Source: Vermamoeba vermiformis (Eukaryota). From it: a DNA stretch of 64,000 bases. The notes under the pieces were generated by a model. The model was not told where the DNA came from, ran no database searches, and was given only the letters and a program-made list of their open reading frames with translations. Location of the stretch: NCBI GenBank assembly GCA_045837725.1, contig JBEWZL010000106.1, forward strand, positions 1 to 64,000, given 5' to 3'. Position 1 is the stretch's first letter. Every line of letters begins with the position of its first letter. Below, piece after piece: positions 6,493 through 46,633 of this stretch. Both the position numbers and the translations under genes were made by a program.

Positions 6493-9400
6493 TTACTTTT
6501 GCATGGCTTCGAGTTGAAGCACAATTTTATCAATTGAAATTCGCTTGTCAGGTGCCATATGCCAGCACTCTTTCATCAGCTGTGCAAGCTCTGAAGGACA
6601 CGAGGATGGAATGCTTGGTGTGAGTCCATTATCGCGAATCAGTCTACCAACCTCGATTGGATCTGCTTCTGCATGTGGCTCTGATTGTGCGATGACTTCG
6701 TACATTAGCACACCAAACGACCAGATATCTGCAAACAGAATATTAGTATCTCAATGCAGAAGTTCAATAATATTTGCAGCACATACCAGACTTATTGGAG
6801 TACTCTTTGTTTCTGAGTGACTCAGGCGACATCCATCGAATAGGTCCGAGTTCTGACTTCGTTGTGCCTCGCTGTTTGTCTGAATCGATCAATCGTGACA
6901 TGCCAAAGTCTGTGATCTTGGGCTCGTTCTGATGCAACAACACATTTCTCGCAGCAATGTCACGGTGCACAATGTTGTTCGCATGCAAGTGCTCGAGACC
7001 TTTGGCCATTCCGACGAGCCACGAGAGCTTTTGTTGCACTGAGAGAGGCTGCTTGGCTTCAAAAAGAGCGTCGTCCAAAGAGCCTCCGTTGCAGTACTCG
7101 ATGACCAAGATGATGCTGTCGGTCTCAGGATGCACGCTGAACCCGAACAACTGAATCACATTGGGATGCGGTCGAAGTTGCATCATCAGTTCGAGTTCAC
7201 CAATCACCGTTGAGTTAGCTTGTGTCATGCTGACTTTGAGTGCCACTGTCGTGCTGTTCCACGTGCCTTTGAACACTTGTCCGCTTGCTCCTTGACCGAG
7301 CTGATCACCGAACTTGATGCTCTCGAAGGGAATGAACCATTGGCCGTACTTGCCTGCGAGACCAATCATCTTATCAGAGCCGCCTTGTCTTCTCCTTCGC
7401 TTATTTCTTCGAACTAAAAAGAACACAAGGAGTGCCGTGGCAATGAGTGCCGCACCGATGGGCACAACAATCACGACAATGAATTCTGCCTGAGTGAGAC
7501 CTGAGGGAGAAGTTGATGGTGTCTCGGGGTAGGTGTCATTATTGGAGACAGGTGGGCTAATCGTGATTGCGTTGTGCGGAATGATCATGATTCTGTCGAC
7601 ATACGCGTTGAAGGCTGAAATGCCACCAGCAATGATAGTGACATTAGCACTCGTCTCGAGCACAACTGCCGGACTGAAAGTGAAGTCCAGCTGCTGCTCG
7701 TCAAGGCCACCATTCTCTAAGTCTCGATAGCTCAATATTCCTTCGTTCATCGACAACAAAAAGTTGCCAGCGAGAGCTATCGTCGGGACCGATGAAAGCG
7801 CGTTGGGCAGCTGTTCGTACTGCCACGTGCCAGTGCGCACGTCGTAGATGTAAAGCGAGTTGAATCGATCTGGATTGCCAGTGGTACCCAGAGCACGGCT
7901 AGTGATGTAGAGCCGACCGTCGTTGTGCACTAACATCTGTTGAAACACGTACTTGAAGATGTCCTCCATAATAGGCGCAGGTGCAGTCGAGTTCCACGAC
8001 GGCAACGAATCAGCTGAAAACACGTCCAACGTGTTGTTATTGGTGCGCATGAAAGCCATGCCTTGACTCGTGGGGACTGGGAGGTGCAAGAAGGACGAGG
8101 ACTCGTTGTTGACTACTGGCTGCGTGTAGTTCGTGTACGTCGTCCAATTGCCTGTCACAGGATCATAGACAGCCATCACAGTGTCCATCCACACGACGAG
8201 TTTGTTGTCTAGTGCTGCTGCTGAGTAAAACCAACGCACTACGAAGCCGTTGTTAATCAACTCTGCTGGCATGTCCGTTGAGTTCCACTCGTTCGTCACG
8301 TAGTTGTAAATATCCACGCGGTTGTAATTCACTTTGTCTGCATTCGGGTCCAACAAACTAGCAATAACAAATCGCTCGTTGTCAAAGTCATAGAGTTTCC
8401 CTCCGGACAGCGTCAAGTTGTGATTCGTGACTTGCAACCAGTTGTTCGAGTTCATCACTTGACCGTCGGCCGTAATAAAATCAGAGCCAATGCGTACTTG
8501 TGGTATTATCGCAACTGGTTGTTGTTTGATAGTATTCGCAGCACCGCCGCTAAAAAACGTCGTTTTGGTGACTTTTTGATCAACTTCGAAGATGTAAACT
8601 GCGTCAAGGTCTTCAGCTGGTATCATGCTAACTATAGTGCTAAACCCTGGTATCTCCGAATCAGTTACTCCATACAGCATGTCCAGTGCTAGATCGTAGC
8701 CGTAAATATTTTTGTTTGTCGTAGCGAAGACTTGGTAAAGCGCGAGACTGACGCTGAATGTTACTTCTATTGTCGGTTTAGGCGCTGTTGCGATCCAAAT
8801 ATCCCTCTCGGCATTGTAAATGTTGAATTGCATTGCGGCGCCATCCGAGTACTTGGTCATATAGATCACGGTGTTGTTCAACATGAACGCGTGTTTGAAG
8901 ACAATTGTTTGGTAGATAGGCTGATTGTCAGTGCTATTCCAATATAAAGTGACTAGCTGCGTGTCGTTGAAGAGAAATGTCACGCCAGGCATTGACAGGA
9001 CGTTGCGTAACTTTTCAAGTGAAACAATTGTTTTCCAAGAACGGCGGGCCACGTGGTACAGCAGAACCGTGTCACCGGCGTTTGCTGTGCCAATTCGAAG
9101 TGCTACCACGCCATTGGCTGCAATCGAAGCAATGACGTTCTGTGTCATGAAAGGAGCAGTCACCAGGTCAGGGTACTCTTGCAAGTCGCCACTCGTCATG
9201 TCGTACACCCACACTGAGCTCGAGTAGACATTTGTCGCGACATTGACGCCTCCAAGCACTACCACGACTCCTTCTTCGCTAAAAATAGCGCATGAGGCCA
9301 TGCCTGACAGCAACTTCCGCAGTGGCACCGGATCTGTCCAATTACCACTTTGCACGTCAAGAATATCGACGCCATTGCTGCCAATTACTGCTAGAAAAGT

Positions 9401-9808
9401 GTTGTAAAGAGCTATTCTCTGAGTATTCACGACAGTAGGTCCAGTGCCATAGTTGATGAATTCATGCTGGATCGGATCGTATATGTAGGTCGGATTTACG
9501 TAATGAACTCCACCAACAATATAAATATTTGGGTCTATGACTACTGGAGTTGCAAATGCACGAGGAGAGCTTAGTTGAATTGATGACGTGTTCTGTGAGA
9601 TCAAGTCGTAAACTTCGATCGTGCGTGTTGCTGTCAGATCTCCGTGTTCGAAGCCACCAATAAAATAGACTTTAGAGTCTGCTTCAATAGCTGAAAAGCC
9701 TACTCTCGGCGTGGATAGGGTAGACGTGTTGAAAGCCACTCCAGCAAAACTGATCTGGACCGTAAAAACTAGCGCAACAAATATAAGTTGCCAAATATTG
9801 CACGTCAT
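6493..9808 (-). CDS. Receptor tyrosine-kinase-type protein with Kelch-like extracellular domain
   Basis: Signal peptide, Kelch-like GG motifs (VYFIGG, IYIVGG, VVLGG), a TM helix followed by RRNKRRR, and kinase motifs GQGASG, VALK, HRDIAARN, DFG, PIRWMSPE. One intron at about 6729-6786 joins to DIWSFGV. Confidence 0.9.
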
Positions 9809-10628
9809 GTTTGTGAGCAATCTGATGATTAATTAGGGTTAGTCATTGGCCAGTTATTTAAAAAAAGATATCGACATCCAATTCACAAGTAACCCAGCAG
9901 AACACAATCGCTTCGATTAATGATATCAAAGGAGAAGTTGATTATTATAAAAAAAAATTCGATTGCTTGAATCCAATTTAAAATGCTGGCGCGAAAAGAA
10001 ACCGCGGGAGACAGCTGTCAGCAGATCTGGTTCTTACCTCCGTGTTACCAGGTTAATGTTTGGTCAATTTAGTTGTGGTGCTTCATGTTCGAGTTCAGTA
10101 ACATATAACCGCATAAAGTTGTTCATTCGTCACGTTGTTCATTTCACAGTACCATGTGGACTTCCGTACCAAATGCTGTCTAAACGTTTTGGACTTATAA
10201 AGAATTAAAGATCATATTAAGTCATATTATATTACCAATGCGCTGTATCAACCAATTGAATTTTGTGGTTCGTTTTTTTGCTGATGTGATCGATTGTTTT
10301 CGAATCTGCAACTAACTGTTAGTGGTTAGTAGCAATACCCTAATTTTTTACGATATTTTGAGACCCAACAAACTAATAATAGTTTTTTTGTAATTTTCAT
10401 GTTTGTAAACAGGATCACTAATCCACTAACTAGAATGGTAACTTACACGTGCACGATATATAAGGTCGCACTCATTGTTATATTATGTTGCTTTGTGCTC
10501 CTTTGATCATTCATGTTGGACTGAGCTGGTTTATCGAACGCAAAAAAGTCCACGCACGTACGAGGTTGCAAAACGTTCTTTTAATGAGTTAGACTATCAA
10601 AAAGATATCAGATAGGTTAATAACATAA

Positions 10629-11941: not shown

Positions 11942-13639
11942 CTATTACACGTTGCTGCTTTTTACTATTAAAAATAAAATATTAGTAATTATTTTAACGA
12001 CAGAAAACCGATCCAGATCGCGCAACTTACCTTTTCGTTTGGTTTCAACGAATTATTGAATAACAGCCGCCTTAGATTAGTGTACTTCGATAACTGTTTG
12101 AAATCAACGACGCATTCTTCAGCAATAAAATTCAATTCTTCCAGCCAAGTCATGGGCTCAAGACACTTCAGTCGTTCCATGTTGATCTGTTGTTCGACTC
12201 CGTTTGCTTCTAGCTTCAAATTCTTCAGCTTAGTGAACAGTGTAACGCGCGAGAAGTCTTCTATAGAAATCTCATGGCAGTACGAGTAATCCAAGCCTAA
12301 AACAAGATCCGATCAGAAAATAATTTCTTTCGCGATCCGAACTTAGAACGCAAATTCAAACGTAAACTAATTATTATATGCATATAATACGTAATTAAGG
12401 GTTGAATAAAATTATTGCCGGCTTACCAAGTGACCTCAGATTATCAAAGCAAGTAAAGTAGCCAACGTTTTGGTCGTTCCATAACAACGATATTGATAGC
12501 TGTCGTAACGAGCTTAGCCCCGATAATTGACAGACAAATTTCGGAGAAAATGATACGTCTTCGAGGAACAGCGTTTGTAAGTTCGTTAAGTGCGTCAAAT
12601 TGCCCAAATGCTCTCCATTTGCTATCTTTTGGTTATCGCTTATATTCAATTGCCTAACATTAACTAGGTGCCTATTATATAAATTATTAATACCACATTT
12701 TTTGCACGAGCGCAAACTTCAAAAAATTGACCGGATCTGGTACACTCGCACGGGTACATTATTCATCTTAGTTTAACAATGACTTACGTTAGAGCTTGTA
12801 AATCCGTGTCTGCTAAATTAGTGCCACGTATCCTAAGCCATTGCAATTGTGTCAAAGGTTTGAAATCTTCGACGGAGACGTTGCCACATCCGTCGAGTTG
12901 TAGATCTTGTAACTTCGTCAATGTGCTTATTAATGATAACCCAGGGTGTAATGATTGCTCCTCTCCTTGAGCTGTCAATAGCAGCGTATGCAAATTTGTA
13001 AAGTAACGGATGTCGTCCGTGATCTTGTGCGAGAGAACTAATCGTCGCAACGTTGAAATGTGCGTTAGTGATTGCAAGCCTTCTATTTGCAAATTGGCGC
13101 ATTTGTTAATATTCAATGACTGCAAGTTTGTTGCGTATTTTGCTAAGACTATAAGTGCATGTGATGATATTGACGGACAATCGTAAAAGTTGACCCTGGA
13201 TGTAGGCAAAAGAAAACATTAGCAATTAACGTTCTATAATTATGATATGTGTATATATAATCTATATATGCGAATGCACGATATGACTCGTGAGTAAACC
13301 CGCGCAATTTTTTAAAATAAATTTCGCGATCGGATCTGAAATTATTCTAACGGCATACCTTAATAAATTCTGAACTTTTGATAAAATTGGTTCTAAATGC
13401 TTGTCTGTGAGCTCTTTGTTAATTAGCCTGAAGTCCAATAAAGTCTGAAACCTCCAACACCAAATCTGCCATCTCTTCGCGACCAACTGAAGTCGGAAAA
13501 GCTCGAGTATATTGAAGTATTTGAATATAACGCCTAATATATCAATAGGCAAGTCGTCGAATGTAACCGACGGTGTCTCCCGCACGCGTTTTTGTTTTTT
13601 AACGTTCGGTTCCTCGTCATCTTCGTCTGACAAGCCCAT
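11942..13639 (-). CDS. F-box/LRR protein, multi-exon (3' end approximate)
   Basis: FDDLPIDILGVIFKYF...LQLVAKRW F-box. Cys-containing LRRs in the following exons (LQSLNINKC, LQDLQLDGC). Confidence 0.85.
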
Positions 13640-14967: not shown

Positions 14968-16403
14968 ATGGGCAACCAATTACCTTCAACTGCTTCGCGA
15001 GCGGATGTCGTTAAATTCTACGACTCGTTGCAAAACTGGATTCCAGAAGCTAATCGCATCGATCGCGTGGAGAAGATTACTGGAGAAGAATTTATGGAAA
15101 AATATTATAAGCCTCAAAAGCCAGTCATTTTAACGAACATGATGGAAGATTGGCCTGCTTTTCAAGTAAGAGTCCTCAGATTTCAAACAATAATTTCATC
15201 CATTGGCTCTAAAATTTGCACATATCGTTACTATAGTAATGACTTAATATTCAGAATTCGCATTTTATAAATTGATAACTTTTTATTTGAATTGAATCCG
15301 AAATTTACCTATTTTCAGGATCTGATTTGAATTTAATCGTCTCATAATAATTGTATTATAGAAATGGACTACAGAGTACATCAAGTCACAAATTGGTGCA
15401 GCCGATCACACGTTTTGGTACGAAGGCAAATCAATGAAAATGAAGATCAACGATTACTTCGAATTGGCTGAGAAATACATCGCTGAGTATCGTAAAGATA
15501 ATAATATAGACCCTCAAGCTATTGGATTTCCACAATTACCTTCTCAATGGGAGAAGATCCCGTACGTTAGGTAAGCCTTTAAAAAGATCTCCTTAAAAAC
15601 GTCTCTATGCAATTGCTTATTAATTTTACACCAATAGTCTAGTTATATTAATGACATATTATTATAGACACTTTGGTCCGTTAAAGAACAAAGCGAAGCA
15701 ACTTGAAGCGGATTTGAAAGCTGATTGCATGTTCCCGAACGGGCATGACGTTAAAATGACTAACTTCTTATTCGTTGGATTACCTGGAACTAAAGTAAGT
15801 CCTATTATACAATAACAGTAACGGCACTAAGGTTGCTAATTCTTTGTTCGATCAGACCGAAATTCACTACGATGGAACCCACAACTTTGTGTCTATAGTT
15901 AAGGGCCAGAAACATATCGCTTTATTGCCTCCAGGTGACCACTCGACGATGTTCCAAGGTAAAATACAATTATTTTTTATTATTTTCAGATGCACAAGAT
16001 CAGATTCTCAGAGCGCCGAACTCGTTTTGAGAAATTTATCAAAAAGTGCTCCTAGCTATTTTGACTACCATATTAACTTCATTTTATAGGCGCTACTCCT
16101 GAGCAAATGAACGTATGGCACACCAAGACTGTTTTTCCGATGGCGGATCCACCCGAGTTGTGCTTAAACTTGGCAAAATTAGCGTCGGATCTGAAACTCA
16201 ACGAAGTGACGCCTGAAACGAAGGTGCCGGATACAGTGAAACTTATGCATCAGCACCCTATTCTAGAGCGTACTATAGGACTACAATATTCGCCAGTGCA
16301 CGAGGGCGAGATCGTGTTTTTCCCTGCTTACTGGTTCCATTACATTCATAATACTGACTTCTCGTATAGTATTACTACTCAAACATTTACGACTGATTTT
16401 TAA
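14968..16403 (+). CDS. JmjC-domain (cupin-like) 2-oxoglutarate/Fe(II) oxygenase, multi-exon
   Basis: EEFMEKYYKPQKPVILTNMMEDWPA...KWT N-terminal motif. Facial triad HYD...WFHYI and GEIVFFPAYWFH. Confidence 0.9.
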
Positions 16404-16543
16404 ATAATGAATTTGAACCAATTGTAAATATAAAAAATTCTTTAGCGTCAAATCCGCTCTATCCGGATCTTAGCCTTAGTCTGCCTTGAGCCTGAGTGAG
16501 GTGCTCTAATGCTAGCGTGAACGGATGACACTCGTATTCATCT

Positions 16544-16647
16544 TCAGACTCAAGTTCTGAAGGCCCGGTTTCGATTACCGGCGAGGGCAAAAAACGGATC
16601 TAAACGAATGATTTTGATCCGGCTCTTGTGGTGTAGTGGTAGCACAT
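16544..16647 (+). tRNA. Putative circularly permuted tRNA gene, anticodon CAA (3' part 16544-16589, 5' part 16622 to about 16647)
   Basis: 3' part reads TCAGA CTCAAGT TCTGA AGGC CCGGT TTCGATT ACCGG CGAGGGC A. Downstream 5' part reads GCTCTTG TG GTGT AGTGGTA GCAC A. GCTCTTG pairs 7/7 with CGAGGGC (two G-U pairs). T8 run at 16733-16740. Confidence 0.75.
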
Positions 16648-16732
16648 CTGGTGAATCCGAAATATTATGGGAGCCTTCTTGCCTAGATTGGCGCTCATAA
16701 TACCCATCCGTTTGTGGCTCAATCACCTTGCA

Positions 16733-16740
16733 TTTTTTTT
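16733..16740 (+). terminator. Oligo-T RNA polymerase III terminator candidate
   Basis: TTTTTTTT one nucleotide after the terminal helix of the permuted tRNA trailer. Confidence 0.55.
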
Positions 16741-16822
16741 ACGTACCTCGATCCGCAAAATAGCTTGAATTTCTGTTTTTTATTTGTTTTGTGTATTAAT
16801 TATGACTGATTGTATTAATTAT

Positions 16823-19800
16823 TTACATAGCAGATTCAGAGGCAGAAGTAGAGCTCGTAAAATCTGTATTTGATTCGTCGTCTTCGTCGGTGCTAGAATC
16901 GTTCTTGAATAACTTGCCCAAGACTGCCTTCATAACATCACGAGGCTTAGGACGGTCGCTATTAAATTTAGCAATTAGTTTCAAATTCATTGAAAAAATA
17001 ATCATTGAAATACTTACAACGCGCCGTAACCGTTGCTCGCCTTAGGAGAAGATTTCCAGAAGTATATACATTTGCCAGCACTAGTAAAGCCCAAAATACC
17101 AGGCTGGGCCATACCGTTGACATAACCATTACGTCTGAAAATATTTTTTGTTAGATCCAGATCCGTTGTCAGATGCGATGTTTCGAGGTACTTACTGAGT
17201 AATGTTGAGCATGTACTCGTCAGCAATAGTGTTCTCCGGCTCGCCAAAGACGGGGAAACTTAATCCCCAGCTCTTAGTTTGCTTAGTAATGATGCGTTGG
17301 TCTTCTGAAGTTAACGCAACCAGCATGCCTCCGCGTTCAATAATCTTCGAGAAATATTTGTTCCAACTCTTCATGTAACGCTAGAAAAACATCATTAGCA
17401 TCACATTATTATATACTATATTATGTTATACTTACTGAACAGAAACCGCACCAAGATCCACGGAACACGACCACCAAAAAGAACTTGTGGTTTGGAATTT
17501 CAGCGCGCAACCAATCAACGAGTCGCTCATAATTGGCGGGATTCTTCGTTAAAAACGCTGCATTTTGGACTAATATAGAACTCGAGCTCGTGCTCGGTCT
17601 GACACCGACTTCTGAGTCAGATCTGTCACGTGCCGATGCCTGCGCACTTTCAGACTCGTGTTCGCTCATTGACGCCATGGAGTTGCCTCGTGCAACTGCA
17701 CTTTGGATCTCGTCCACGGGAACAAACTCCGCGGCATCTTCTGCGTCACCAACGCACACTCGGCACATTTCACGGGTCTCAGGCTGTTCGGCCTTTTGTG
17801 CGAACCTAAGGCATAGTGATTAGACGCCTGCGCAAATTGAGAAAAATGGCAATTTTTTTCACGTACTTCTTGAGAATGGGAATGAACGGAGCGTTCTTGT
17901 CCTTAATGTGCTCAATGATCTGAGCGGATTTAAAGATGATAAATCCACCAATCAAGAAGAAGTCCTTGTCGATCATCACGTGATCAGGGTTTAAAGCTCT
18001 AGCTACTTCTCTTTTCTGCGCAGACTTGGTGAAATGTTGCACGTGTCCGTGGAGAGGTTGCACGTGAATGAATTGATTGGCATTTGCTTTCTAAATGTCA
18101 AAAAGATAAGAATCAGTTGACACGTGTCATATTATTTTGCCACTTACGGTGACGCCTTCGTAGAAGTGGAGGATTCTGGCTTGAGATTCCGTGACAAATG
18201 CTTTCAGTGAATCTTCTTCTACTTGTTTGCCTTGGGCAATAGCGTCAAACATTGCGGCCAATCTGTTCAAGTTGTAACGGGCAGCATCGGAAATTTGCTC
18301 TAAAGTCACGCATTAGCACACATTTTTTTAAATCGTTGTCAACCATACCATTGGTCAAGTTGTAGACGTCAGGAGCAGCGATAATTCGGCACAAGAACTT
18401 ATCGTGCATAATGACGGCCATACCCTTTCTATAATAACAAGAGATTAGTGTCATGTAGGCTTTACTATATTTGGAAAAAGTACCTGTAACGTCGCTCCTC
18501 GGACAACTGTGGGAAGTATTTTTTCATGTTATTGTCGACTCTTTGAAGCACAGAGAGCAACATTGGAGGAACAGCAGCCTTGTGCTTCATTAGAGTGGAG
18601 GTCAGAGTCGTCGCGAACTTGATCAACTTCTTGGAATTCTTCGCATTTAGTTTCTCTTCTTGCGTTCGCTTCTTCCTATTGCTGATCATCGTAGAGATCT
18701 GCAAAGATGATGATCGTTAGTACGATGACGTTTGACACGTGTCAAAGTGTCATTCGTGAACTCACCTCCAATGGCTTCGGGTACTTCAAGATATCGACAA
18801 AAACGTCCGACAACAATTTTTGCATGTATTCACCGCAAACCAACACGATGAACCGCAAAATGATCTGAGTAGTGATTCTGTTATCGTTGAACAACAAATC
18901 ATAGCTTTGAACATCTTCACCGGGCGTCAAAACCGAGTAAAGTTTGTCGAACTGTTGCTTTGTCGACTCTGGTGTATTATTAGTAATGATCGGTATATGA
19001 AGATATTTATAGGAGACTTACCCAACGACTCGAACTCTGCATCTACAGCCCAGTTTAATAAATCGAGTAATTTGCCTTCGCTGTGGGCCACTCGCAAGAA
19101 CGCATCCACAACGGTTGTGTCGACACGAGATCCCATTCCGGAGTTCAAGAACAACGCATTGACGAATCCAGGCTCGGACATCAATTTAATTAAGACTTCA
19201 CGACCAATAATTGACTCGGTCATTTGCTTGTACTTCGTACTCTAAGAAAAAAAATAATCAAATTTAGTTTTTTCGTTCACTGAAAAAAATAACATTTGCG
19301 ACGAACCTTTTTAACGCGTTTAGCTCTTCTTTCGTAGTACTTGACATTAGGCTTCCAATTATATACATCAATTTGGTCATGAGCTCGTTCTTTTTCGACG
19401 TTAACATGAGCGATGAAAATTTGACCGTCCTCGCTTAATAAGAACTTGTGTTTTTTGCCTCTAAAACTCTTCTTTTTCAACGGAGTAAATCTCTCGTCCA
19501 ATGTAACATCCCAAATGTTCATTTCTATAAAAGGAAATTTTAATCAGTACACGATCTCGAGCGGCGCCGGTTGCCGAGAAAACAATTCTGAAATATTGCG
19601 GATAATGCTTAAATAAATACTTACTATCTTGAACTAATACGAATAAATATTCTCCGACCATTCCGAGCCAGTTGACACGTGTTTCAATCAGATCTTGGAT
19701 GCTCTTTCTGTGGGAACCAACAGAGGAAATATTATGGAACGGTTGGCTCTTAGTCTTCTTAGTCATATCATATACATCGACTAGACCTCTAATACTGCCA

Positions 19801-21816: not shown

Positions 21817-24800
21817 CTACTTCATAGTAATGCGTTGACGCTTAACACTCGATGAAGGCACGAGATCAATATCGTCATCCAGCTTTCGCTTTGATCCAAC
21901 AGCTGCACTACTTGTCGTAGATGTCGATCCAGATCCGCCGTTGCGAACTTGCAGTGCTCGTTCAGCGAGCGTCAAGCGCTTGTTGGTGGTTGGTGCAACT
22001 GGCTTAGATTTCACTTGAACACGTGGAGTATTGGCGACTTCGTTGTGTTTCAGCGTTTGCAGTGGCTTGCGAACTGAATTCGCGACTTTAGAAACAGACT
22101 GCAGCGATGGCTTTGTGACTGTTGGTGGCGGCATCAACATTGCAGGTGTCATCTTCGGAGACTCCTCCGAAGTGTCATTAAGTGTCAACATGGTTTGGTT
22201 CAGATCTTCATAGGCTGAATCATCTGTAGGCGCGCAACTCGATGAAGATAATGGTGCGCTAATAGTATTCGTGCTGGTCTTCAATGAGTTGCCCGAATTT
22301 GACAGCAGTGAGTTCACATCCAGTTGGCCAGATCTGTACTTAAACAACTCCAAGCCCATATTATACATCGCTGTTACTATCAACTTATGCTCTCGTTGAA
22401 GAATCTCGTGCTCTTCTTTAGCTTGCATAGCTTCTTGTTGCAATTTGGAAAACTCGTCGTTATTTACAGCGTTCTCGAGTTCTTCCTCCAACTTTGCTAT
22501 TTTTTCTTTCAAATTGTTAATTTCAATTTCAAGGCATCCAATTTTGTTCTATAATACAACGCCATTAATACAGATCCTATTATAACACCTATTGTTCACG
22601 TACCGTCTTTTCTTGCAACTGTTGGTTCAATTCTTCTTGTTCCTCTTTCAATTTTTCCGCTTCTCTTTGTGCCTGTCGCTTTTGAACTTCATTTTCAGCA
22701 GCCTCGCCTATTAAATAATTAGTATGATACTCACTGAATAGTGTCCTTTATGTACGTACTTGTGGAAGTCTTCAACTTCAATGCAAAGTCCTGTAACTTC
22801 GTCTTGAATTGTTCTTGCACGGACTGCAATGAATTCTCCGTCTTTTTCAACTTCTCTTCGACTTTGCTGTACTTGATCTTTGCTTCGGTCAACTCGCTTT
22901 GCAACTCATAGATCTACGTATACAAGCGTTAACATCAAGCTGCCTTAATGAACAATCGTTAATATATGATCGTACCTTGGCTTGGCTCTCGTGCAAGTTA
23001 GCGTTCAACTGCTTCGTTGAATCTTCAAAATCTTTCACGCGCTTGTTGAGCAAGTTGTTTTCCTATTAAACAGTTATTATTAACACGATCCTTTATATTA
23101 TATCACTATTGCGTACTTGTTGATACTTCTGGTTCAACAACATCGTCGTGTCAAGTTTGTCCTCGAGAGCGTTGACTTGAGCGGTCTGATCCACAGTCAT
23201 GCCACGAGTGGACGGTGATTTGAACATGTCATGCTTCACTACTCGTTCCTTACTACAATAACATTGGTTAGAATTAACTGCTTTAGCAGAACGATGTAAG
23301 TTTGACATGTCAAAAGTGACACGTGTAAAATGGTAAATTGTCGTGTCAAAAATTACGTACGTCGTGGGTGTCATAAGAGCACGACTCAATATCTCAGGAG
23401 AAGGTGTCGGTGCAACAGTTGTGATGATACTAACGGTGCTCTTTTGTGGCGTGGTCGCGAGCTGTGCCTTCGCCGAGAGCAATGCGATCTGTTCTTGTTG
23501 TTGCGAATTTTCTTCTTTCAAAATTTCCAATTGTTCCTACAAGTAACAATGTTAATATTTGTACCATATAGATAGCTATTGAAAACATTATATAACCTCG
23601 CGTCCAAAAAACAAGATCCGTTACAATACCTTAAGTTGAGTAATCTCCAAGTCCTTTTCGTTTGTAGCCAGTTCCAGTTTGCTCGATTTTTCGGATACTT
23701 CCAAGAATTGTTGCTTATAATTTTCAACTTTTGATTCTAAGCGGGCAATTGTACGCTTTGAATTCTCTTCGATATCAACTTTCTGTTGGATCAGCTTGGT
23801 GTTTTGTTCTTCGAGGGATTTCGATTGATTTTTCATGTCTTGGAATAACTCTAGCTTAATGTTGACTTTTTTCAACTGTTCTTCCAGCAGATCCGCCTTG
23901 CGAGCTTTTTCTTGTAAGATCTCCATCTCATCGCGCATTTCTCTTGATTTAAATACAAACTTCGATAACTCATCCACCTGATAACCATTATGTTAGCTTG
24001 CGCGTCTTCAAAAGGTATTGGTGCGTTAGATCCGCTGCTACTGACCTCTCGTTTCAATTTCAAAATATTTCGTTCTTTCTCCAATAATTTTGCTCGAAGC
24101 TCTTCATTTTCTTCAGATATCCTAACAAAATAATATTAATGATCAAATAGCCCAAAAAGCTAACAATTGGTTCGTACAAGATCCGTTACAAAAAAAACGA
24201 AATCAATTAAAAATCGGCAATAGGCATTACAGGCAGAGTTCTTTGCCACTGTAGTATTTAATGACTAAAAGCAAAAAAGAAAAGAGCACAACACCGCCGA
24301 TTCCCAGGTAGTCTCCTACCCCAGTACTAAGAAGGCCTGAACAAGCTTAACTTCGCTGATCGGACGGGAAGCGGTGCATTCTTGTTAGTGTGGTCGTGCC
24401 CGAGACGCTTCGCAACATCGTGTTCGGGTCACTACTTGCGTAACAAAAAAAAACAACCCACATCCATATCTCGAAGCGAATAATTTGGAAATCGGTTCAA
24501 TAAGCCAAAATATCTGCTAATTTCAATCAATAGGGATAAATCGACTCACCTAGAGTTATTAAGGTTGATTGGGCTTTGAACAATCTCTTTTTGTTTGAGC
24601 ATCTGTTCGAGAGTCGCGATCCGTTCTAATAATGCTGATTCACGAGCACTAGCATCTTCAATCTTTTGTTCCATCTGTTGAAAGGCTTCTAAAGCAAGGT
24701 CTTTCTGGACTTCCAAGCGCGAAGTGTAATCAGCGAATGAATCTACAATATCGCTCTTCAACTCGCTATTCTCTCGCCTTAATTCTTCAATTCTATCGTC

Positions 24801-25729: not shown

Positions 25730-26095
25730 TTTTTTCGTGTCGTTGCGGAGCTTACAATGATACTAAAGGACGCTAAATATCGTCCCCTTAAGCTGCAGTA
25801 GTGTATAGACCAAAAAGAACGCGTAATTCAAACTGTAGATTTAAAAATTTCAAACAGCAATTTTTGGCGGGAGTTTATTATTGTTCTTTGTAACGCCATT
25901 GAGAACAACACCAGTAATCTAAACCTTAGTCTTGTATAAGAGACGTGTCTAGAGCACAATCAGATTTAAAAGTTGGAATAGTTTTTGTTGTAAACAGATT
26001 TAAGCTCGGCGAAGCTGGAAACGGTCAATACCTATTATGGCGATATTACTCCTATTTTAGAATTTAAATCTATAAATAATAGAAAACAAGAATAT

Positions 26096-26296
26096 GTCTG
26101 CCTAACGGTACGGTTGCTGCGCGGTGATCAAGCAGAACCAGCTCATCTCCGACAACTAAATAGCGGTTTAGCTTTTACGCTTATTATCGCGGAGTGTGGT
26201 GCTCTAATGGAAGCTTCTCCGGAGTTTTAGCCACATCCGAACTCCGTCGTGGAATTTTCTACGGCATTCTATTAGCACGTGGCTCGAGTGTTACAC
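26096..26296 (+). ncRNA. Putative structured ncRNA/element related to the scaffold around the permuted tRNA
   Basis: Shares GTCTGCCT, a 20/23-nt block and GTGGCTC, in the same order, with 16479-16731. Equivalent terminal helix and two internal hairpins. Confidence 0.4.
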
Positions 26297-26435
26297 AAAA
26301 AAGCCCGAGTTTATTGTTTCTAGTTATTTTTCAATGCTAAGAAGGCTAACACAACAAACTACAACAGTTTTTGCTCGATCCAAGCCCGCAAACAAGCCCG
26401 TCACTTTATTTTTATTTAAACGAAACAAATCCACA

Positions 26436-27110
26436 ATGTCTGTCTCCCAAACTGTTCAAACTTTGATTAACGATAACCCCGTTATGGTTTTCTCCAAGAG
26501 CTATTGCCCGTAAGTTAATGCAAGAGATCTGCTGACAATTTTTCTAACTTTAAATTATTTTCTAGTTACTGCACTAAGGTAAAGAATTTGTTCAAGTCCC
26601 TCGGTGTTTCATATAAGGTCGTTGAGTTGGATGAAGAAGGTAATTTAATTTTAAAAATTATTTTTAATATTTTTTTCGCTGGATCTGACATTTTCATACA
26701 GCCAACGGCTCTGCTATTCAAGACGAATTGAAAAAATTGACTCATCAATCTACTGTTCCTAATGTCTTCATTGGTAAGCCTTATTCGATTAATATAAGAC
26801 CTCGCGTGACTTCGAAGTTTGTTAAAAACACGTAATTTTTATCATGCAAAGTCTTAAATTGGCCGTAATCATAGTTAGCAATATCATATTAATTATAAAT
26901 ATCTATTCGTGCCATTATTTTTATTTGCTAACATAATTTTTTTTGCGATCAGGTAAAAATCACGTTGGTGGATGTGATGGTAAGTCTCAAATTCTCGTTA
27001 AGACTAGATCATAGTATATTAATTATTGATTTATAGATACTCACGCTGCTAAGGCCAATGGCAAACTTAAGACTTTGTTGGATCAAGCTGGTGTCAAGTC
27101 TAACCTCTAA
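26436..27110 (+). CDS. Dithiol glutaredoxin (CPYC), 5 exons
   Basis: Spliced product MSVSQTVQTLINDNPVMVFSKSYCP|YCTKVK...TVPNVFI|GKNHVGGCD|D...VKSNL*. Confidence 0.95.
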
Positions 27111-46451: not shown

Positions 46452-46547
46452 GACAACATGGCCGAGTGGTCTAAGGCGGCAGACTTGAAAGACCTTCGAG
46501 TTATCTGCTGGGGTCTCCCCGCGCAGGTTCAAACCCTGCTGTTGTCG
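46452..46547 (+). tRNA. tRNA-Ser(UGA) with 13-nt canonical intron (46490-46502)
   Basis: GACAACA/TGTTGTC acceptor stem, GCAGA/TCTGC anticodon stem, TGA at 46486-46488, long variable arm GGGG TCT CCCC, T loop TTCAAAC, G73. Confidence 0.95.
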
Positions 46548-46633
46548 ATACCTTTTTGCCTTCCCCCCCCCCTGGCGCCCCGCACACGAGGGACCGGGGG
46601 CCGGACACCGCTGTTGTCCATACCTTTTTGCCT
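46538..46633 (+). repeat. 24-bp direct repeat of the tRNA 3' end flanking a 48-bp GC-rich insert
   Basis: GCTGTTGTCGATACCTTTTTGCCT (46538-46561) versus GCTGTTGTCCATACCTTTTTGCCT (46610-46633). Confidence 0.85.

Follow-up and report, generated by a model that had tools for sequence, protein, structure and literature searches.

A candidate second, tRNA-free copy of a Y-shaped RNA shell 5′ of a glutaredoxin gene in Vermamoeba vermiformis

In the 64,000-nucleotide stretch of Vermamoeba vermiformis DNA that we analyzed (contig JBEWZL010000106.1, positions 1 to 64,000; hereafter the window), we found that a short element at 26192–26296 (locus 2) resembles, at its two ends, a structured shell within the unit at 16441–16748 (locus 1), which carries a rearranged tRNA-like sequence. 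With a probability of about one half, we read the locus-2 core as a true, much-diverged second copy of a Y-shaped RNA shell, lying in the mRNA leader of a glutaredoxin gene. This shell would be about 105–130 bases long and would consist of a closing helix, two conserved boxes that face each other just inside the helix, and two hairpins; locus 1 would be the same shell loaded with a rearranged tRNA-like module in the tip of its first hairpin, and locus 2 would be the shell in its unloaded form. As far as the sequences tell, the likeness of the two loci is made up of the two boxes, a helix that is kept as pairing and a common layout. All features of the two loci are on the plus strand.

All that the original prediction stated about the sequence proved correct. 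The prediction started from a 23-base motif, and we found that 26192–26214 (the 5′ box of locus 2) is identical to 16494–16516 (the 5′ box of locus 1, located by motif search) at 20 of 23 positions. When up to three mismatches are allowed, these are the only two sites on both strands of the window, and at least two such sites were present in 0 of 100 shuffles. When the 268-base locus 1 is compared with the rest of the window, the motif is also the local match that scores highest; its score of 18 was reached in 5 of 60 simulated windows, and its blastn-short E-value of 0.12 is the same as that of three AT-rich chance matches. Taken alone, the 23-base motif appears borderline, and these figures count in favor of a reading in which the resemblance arose by chance and locus 2, unrelated to locus 1, is a promoter or 5′ UTR of the usual kind. 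The shorter words that the loci share point the same way. GTCTGCCT, said to precede both motifs, is present at both loci (16479–16486 and 26096–26103, the only two copies in the window); however, the distance from its end to the motif is 7 bases at locus 1 but 88 bases at locus 2, so that the copies do not occupy homologous positions. Two or more copies of this 8-mer occurred in 20 of 100 shuffles. Colinear shared 7-8-mers chain freely, with 197 of 400 control queries chaining as well as locus 1, and the best chain of locus 1 falls elsewhere, near 12800–13100. We therefore dropped GTCTGCCT and the colinear k-mers as evidence of relatedness, because chains that good are expected by chance.

What stands against a chance origin is the 3′ side of the element. 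GTGGCTC, which has seven sites in the window, is found 3′ of both motifs as had been claimed, at 16714–16720 and at 26279–26285 (the 3′ box), and at both loci it is followed by exactly three bases of spacer and then by an 8-base strand for which motif positions 3–10 are the pairing partner. At locus 1, the 3′ box, the spacer AAT and the helix strand CACCTTGC together occupy 16714–16731 and T8 follows at 16733–16740. At locus 2, the 5′ strand of the closing helix (GTGTGGTG, 26194–26201) has a single partner that pairs at all eight positions within 126 bases downstream of the motif, TGTTACAC at 26289–26296, and this partner stands in the same register as at locus 1. To score the 3′ element, we counted the bases identical to the locus-1 box and spacer (10 bases) and, in the 8 bases after them, those able to pair with the locus-2 motif, a statistic that was devised after the data were seen. 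The 3′ element of locus 2 scores 16 of 18. Of 126,394 other window positions, none equals this and 5 have 15; of 60,000 random 125-base segments, none equals it and 262 have 15. In favor of a relation, only 454 of 127,986 8-mers (0.35%) pair with GTGTGGTG in full. On the side of chance, a strand made only of G and U pairs easily: a pairing scan found six partners nearby that match it at 7 of 8 positions.

When we aligned the locus-1 shell, with its module removed, to the locus-2 core over their whole length, 67 of 103 aligned positions were identical, and the score of 46 (as compared to 18 ± 7 in shuffles) was equaled in 0 of 1000 shuffles. The interior alone appears unrelated, since 728 of 1000 shuffles score as well. 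The two loci also have the same layout and, without the module, a similar size. Because the 3′ element score is unmatched at other positions, the two loci are very probably related by sequence, and chance is unlikely even when we allow generously for a post hoc statistic; a chance resemblance to an ordinary leader is, in our judgment, distinctly improbable. The comparisons support the view that the shared parts are both ends of a folded unit.

The terminal helix was predicted to be kept despite its differing sequence, and we found that all eight positions pair at both loci. Six of these pairs are Watson-Crick at locus 1 as compared to four at locus 2, where the other four are G-U, and the energy of the duplex is –9.1 kcal/mol at locus 1 as compared to –4.0 kcal/mol at locus 2. 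The 5′ strand differs between the loci at only one of eight positions, whereas the 3′ strand differs at seven of eight; six of the 3′-strand changes exchange C and U or A and G opposite a G or a U, and the remaining one belongs to the compensated A-U to U-A swap of the original prediction, which is real. The helix would have been maintained, in the mechanism that we propose, by G-U-compatible changes at six of the eight 3′-strand positions and by one two-sided swap. Since G-U pairs exist only in the plus-strand RNA, the constraint on this helix would have acted on plus-strand RNA, and the pattern supports the conclusion that the changes make sense only there. Once the helix closes, the 5′ box (CUCUAAUG..AGC) would form an internal loop with the 3′ box (GUGGCUC), and this two-box loop might be a binding platform, with the interior free to vary or to carry cargo. 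The analysis shows how the sequences are related, with the statistics, the predicted folds and the gene context; transcription of the shell, the binding platform and any function are what we infer from this model.

At locus 1, the unit comprises a leader, the shell, the tRNA-like module and T8, and its extent (16441–16748) was taken from an alignment with the relative L001. The module (16544–16649) sits exactly at the tip of hairpin 1 of the shell and is accompanied by a direct repeat, CATCT, at 16539–16543 and 16645–16649. Its tRNA-like parts are 16544–16589 (tRNA positions 27–73) and 16622–16646 (positions 1–26). Locus 1 was held to carry a permuted tRNA, and the order of its parts agrees with this: the 3′ part lies upstream of the 5′ part, and when 16622–16646 is rejoined to 16544–16589, ARAGORN recognizes a 71-nt cloverleaf with anticodon CAA. 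The variable loop of the rejoined tRNA is 4 bases, which is short and unusual for a leucine anticodon. When we inspected the junction by eye for a bulge-helix-bulge motif, AUUCA/UGAAU, a UCU bulge and UCAGA/UCUGG can form, without a clean second bulge. Removal of the module leaves a 132-nt shell with a predicted folding energy of –44.6 kcal/mol (z –3.53), in which there is an 8-bp closing helix, a two-box internal loop, a stem of 4 + 10 bp and two hairpins; this is the same layout of a closing stem plus two hairpins that is predicted for the locus-2 core.

In the relative L001, the exon neighboring locus 1 has 83% protein identity and the flanks align on both sides, and the whole unit 16441–16748 is missing at the matching intergenic site (L001 1957–1958). 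The contig used for this comparison reaches locus 1 only and is too short for locus 2. Judged from the alignment, the locus-1 unit was either gained here or lost in the L001 lineage, and its absence from L001 means that it is dispensable or mobile. This absence, with aligned flanks, favors the main rival of our reading, namely that both loci are decayed copies of repeated or mobile DNA (SINE-like, tRNA-gene-derived or MITE-like) without a present RNA function, whose shared ends were needed for copying, for example as Pol III A-box-like and B-box-like sites. There are other features that fit a repeat: ATCCGC is present at 16452–16457 and 16751–16756, near both borders of the L001 gap; the CATCT repeat flanks the tRNA-like module; A6 follows the locus-2 helix; and 26264–26278 is an imperfect 15-base inverted copy of the locus-2 box. 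In addition, by our own count, the match of TGCTCTAATGG to the A-box consensus covers 6 of 9 fixed positions and that of GGCTCGAGTGT to the B-box consensus 7 of 10. When the loci are compared with a SINE, what we observe is two copies in 64 kb and none further, a weak A/B box likeness, A6 at locus 2 and short repeats near the locus-1 gap.

Decay of a transposon, however, should be even, and here two boxes have persisted, the helix survives only in its pairing, and the interiors bear no relation to each other. The strand-specific G-U pairs point to RNA, the inverted copy of the box is absent at locus 1, and the border repeats of locus 1 are short and cannot be placed unambiguously. We therefore regard a decaying repeat family as somewhat unlikely; it is still the main rival, and chance is less likely.

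Locus 2 lies within an island that is GC-rich in the composition profile (26096–26300; GC 0.45–0.52 as compared to 0.25 and about 0.32 in the flanks). A TATA box, TATAAATA, which we read from the sequence at 26071–26078, where the GC content is 0.25, precedes the start of the island by 18 bases. An ORF check of the island found no ATG-started open frame of at least 20 amino acids. Ahead of the core there is an upstream hairpin (26120–26191, in which 26120–26133 pairs with 26179–26191 in the centroid fold and by sequence) whose counterpart is absent from locus 1. The core itself (26192–26296, 105 nt) has a folding energy of –34.1 kcal/mol (z –2.59) and falls in the most stable 1.8% of 1108 GC-matched 105-base windows, whereas for the 236-base island as a whole the stability is unremarkable (z –0.49). 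Its predicted layout is a closing stem plus two hairpins, and the two hairpins of the original prediction are both found in the minimum-energy fold: hairpin 1 at 26220–26246 (26220–26227 with 26239–26246) and hairpin 2 at 26248–26263 (26248–26253 with 26258–26263). The closing helix between 26194–26201 and 26289–26296 is omitted from this fold; instead, the 5′ box (26199–26214) pairs with its inverted copy at 26264–26278, a strand that rivals the closing helix and has no such counterpart at locus 1. Enforcing the closing helix gives –31.4 kcal/mol as compared to –34.1 kcal/mol, an extra cost of 2.7 kcal/mol.

The first coding exon of a glutaredoxin gene (26334–26511) begins 38 bases 3′ of the closing helix. 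Its upstream ATG at 26334 is in frame with a second Met at 26437 and adds a 34-residue extension, which is conserved in two transcript-derived proteins of relatives, P0007 and P0009. P0007 (EukProt, Vermamoeba vermiformis) has 92% identity to the glutaredoxin exon over the aligned part. P0009 has 140 residues encoded by a 423-base ORF on a 910-base intron-free contig, and the remaining 487 non-coding bases of this contig are compatible with a long leader. The conserved extension indicates that the glutaredoxin mRNA starts upstream of 26334, and we found no other TATA box between TATAAATA and this ATG. By its composition, the extension looks like a mitochondrial presequence, and the two starts, with an extension that is conserved in two relatives, suggest that the glutaredoxin is made as dual-located isoforms. 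The gene as a whole (26334–27110) has two in-frame starts and four short introns, and a short form of 106 residues is on record (P0008).

These data bear on whether locus 2 would instead be a small RNA gene in its own right, paralogous to the locus-1 RNA within a lineage-specific family, that starts near 26096–26190, ends at or before the first T5 run 3′ of the element (26327–26331) and is built like Y, vault or dictyostelid Class I RNAs. The position of the GC-rich island 18 bases after the TATA box and the strong fold of the core would suit such a gene, as would the T8 in which locus 1 ends right after its helix; moreover, the tRNA-Ser gene of the window ends at T5, so T5 may suffice as an end. 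However, A6 rather than a T-run is directly 3′ of the locus-2 helix, there are three T4 runs within the island (26173–26176, 26225–26228 and 26255–26258), the glutaredoxin mRNA must also begin upstream of 26334 with no other TATA box between, and Rfam gives no match to the element even at E ≤ 10. Because of the A6, the missing T-run after the helix and the T4 runs inside the island, an mRNA leader is favored over a free Pol III gene. Locus 2 is probably transcribed within the mRNA of the dual-start glutaredoxin, in its 5′ leader, and may not be a separate RNA gene, an alternative that we consider unlikely.

Two tiny upstream ORFs are present around locus 2. One is at 26094–26105, in or at the island (ATG TCT GCC TAA), and the other, of 7 codons, is at 26207–26230 and has its ATG inside the conserved 5′ box. 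The 5′ box of locus 1 likewise contains an ATG, which is followed by a 3-codon ORF.

The original prediction spoke of a dispersed family of structured RNAs or elements, of which further copies were to be sought. When we searched the window, L001 and L002 with a sequence model that covers 53 bases at the 5′ end, the two loci were recovered at 42.1 and 41.8 bits and no third copy was found, the next five matches scoring at most 3.9 bits (E 6 to 9). The relatedness of the loci and their common layout are supported; "dispersed", on the other hand, comes down to two copies 10 kb apart, and with two copies a new ncRNA family is a plausible reading of the sequences. A strict form of the motif had 0 matches in metagenome, viral and prokaryote genome contigs, collections in which this lineage is barely represented, and the glutaredoxin exon had no match in the prokaryote genome contigs. 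When locus 2 was translated and sought as spurious ORFs in relatives, there was no candidate. A literature search found no study of the small RNAs of this lineage.

Neither locus matches any of the 4227 models of Rfam 15, which include Y RNA, Vault, SRP, RNase P/MRP, snRNAs, snoRNAs and tRNA, at the gathering threshold or at E ≤ 1; over the whole window, these two settings return only a 5S rRNA and one tRNA. At E ≤ 10, the only match over 25900–26500 is a chance match to U1A_PIE on the other strand and outside the element, and over 16300–16900 there are two chance-level matches. No tRNA part was found at locus 2 by Rfam or ARAGORN.

We also considered a number of known RNAs and elements, most of them by eye against consensus sequences, and set them aside. 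The resemblance to loop 1 of U5 (GCUUUUAC as compared to GCCUUUUAC), to the UGUAAU turn of the SRP Alu domain and to the 5′ end of U12 has no support from Rfam; the GGCAGAC partner that P4 of RNase P/MRP would need is missing; and for box C/D and H/ACA snoRNAs the D box and the H box are missing. A 5S-like three-way junction, compared by eye, likewise has no Rfam support. The loci diverge after GUCUGCCU, unlike what a spliced-leader RNA would require, and the shell is not a degenerate outer tRNA, as neither a D stem nor a T stem forms. For a MITE, terminal inverted repeats are not in both copies (imperfect and 15 bases long at locus 2, none at locus 1). A coding exon at locus 2 would have no open frame with a start, and a 5′-UTR intron ending at 26323 would have no branch site.

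Other features of the window were noted. There is a eukaryote-type 5S rRNA gene on the minus strand at 24283–24401 and an intron-bearing tRNA-Ser at 46452–46547, both found by Rfam. The last ~25 bases of the tRNA-Ser together with T5 (GCTGTTGTC.ATACCTTTTTGCC) recur about 70 bases downstream, within 46548–46632, and between the end of the gene and this recurrence is a very GC-rich stretch with C10 and GGGGGCC. Introns in the window are short, of the form GTAAGT...CTRAC...AG. Long open frames on the minus strand encode a Kelch-repeat and tyrosine-kinase-like protein kinase of 1018 aa (6764–9820) and an F-box/LRR protein of 536 aa (117–1727), and there is a strong AT skew at 22001–24000 (–0.198) as compared to the rest of the window.

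Among known RNAs, the vault RNA and other Pol III RNAs have paired ends, conserved sequences near the ends, a variable center, an upstream TATA box and internal A and B boxes. The loci resemble them in their paired ends, in the conserved sequences near both ends and the variable center, in the TATA-like box upstream and in the T-run terminator at locus 1; they differ in that there is no Rfam Vault match and in that, at locus 2, ~100 bases separate the box from the point where transcription would likely begin downstream of the TATA box. The Class I RNAs of dictyostelids, as described in the relevant sections of PMC7919456, are 42–65 nt long, share an 11-nt motif and have a DUSE ~60 nt upstream, and the same sections report a search for them in other organisms. 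In that description, as in the shell, a short stem that keeps its structure and not its sequence joins the 5′ and 3′ ends, a conserved motif adjoins the 5′ strand of this stem and the remainder varies; many of the genes are followed by T-runs, and the host is an amoebozoan (PMC7919456). Measured against those sections, the shell differs in its length of 105–132 nt, in its motif and in having an extra 3′ box and two hairpins, and by inspection we recognized no DUSE at the shell loci. By size and motif, the shell sequences appear to fall outside Class I.

The portion of PMC4201824 that concerns Y RNAs describes a stem of both RNA ends that carries a variable module, as in the shell. It further describes the bacterial YrlA, which has a tRNA-like domain with a closed acceptor stem, and the simpler YrlB, a pair that parallels locus 1 and locus 2 (PMC4201824). 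In contrast to Y RNAs, the loci have no Rfam Y RNA match and no helix motif for Ro60 binding that we recognized; and in contrast to YrlA as described there, the anticodon arm is complete in the tRNA-like part of locus 1, whose junction with the shell is at 26/27. For permuted tRNAs, the part of the 2014 review that lists them gives algae and archaea as hosts of 34 genes, junctions at 20/21, 37/38, 50/51 and 59/60, and intervening stretches of 1–74 bases (PMC3978253). Locus 1 resembles these genes, as they are listed, in having the 3′ part before the 5′ part, an intervening stretch of 32 bases, a paired leader and trailer and a TATA-like sequence upstream; however, its junction at 26/27 is outside the positions listed (PMC3978253). 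Leader and trailer here also form a large shell that exists alone as well, which sets them apart from the genes in that list, and locus 2 is without any tRNA part. By analogy of architecture, the Class I, Y RNA and, for locus 1 only, permuted tRNA families are the nearest to the shell.

The same analogy allows for a more far-reaching version of the shell reading, which we think very unlikely: in Vermamoeba-like amoebae, the shell would define a family of carrier RNAs, with one protein partner that recognizes the conserved closing stem and the pair of boxes and with hairpins that host modules, a eukaryotic counterpart of the bacterial YrlA and YrlB. One member would host a whole tRNA, circularly rearranged, with anticodon CAA and a short variable loop. 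Because the shell would also be in the mRNA leader of a glutaredoxin isoform that looks mitochondrial, it could be a shared address or handling tag, with mitochondrial delivery or the quality control of RNA as possible uses.

If the loci are instead a decaying repeat, the repeat would account for the origin of the flanks of the tRNA-like locus and would point to a leader with structure and uORFs on a dual-targeted glutaredoxin. Should the shell prove to be a real RNA module, locus 1 would not be a rearranged tRNA gene with incidental flanks; it would be a structured RNA that was there beforehand and received, at the tip of a hairpin, an insert shaped like a tRNA. A tRNA-in-scaffold design would then occur naturally in a eukaryote, and the two boxes with their covarying helix would provide a handle for finding the family and its protein partner.
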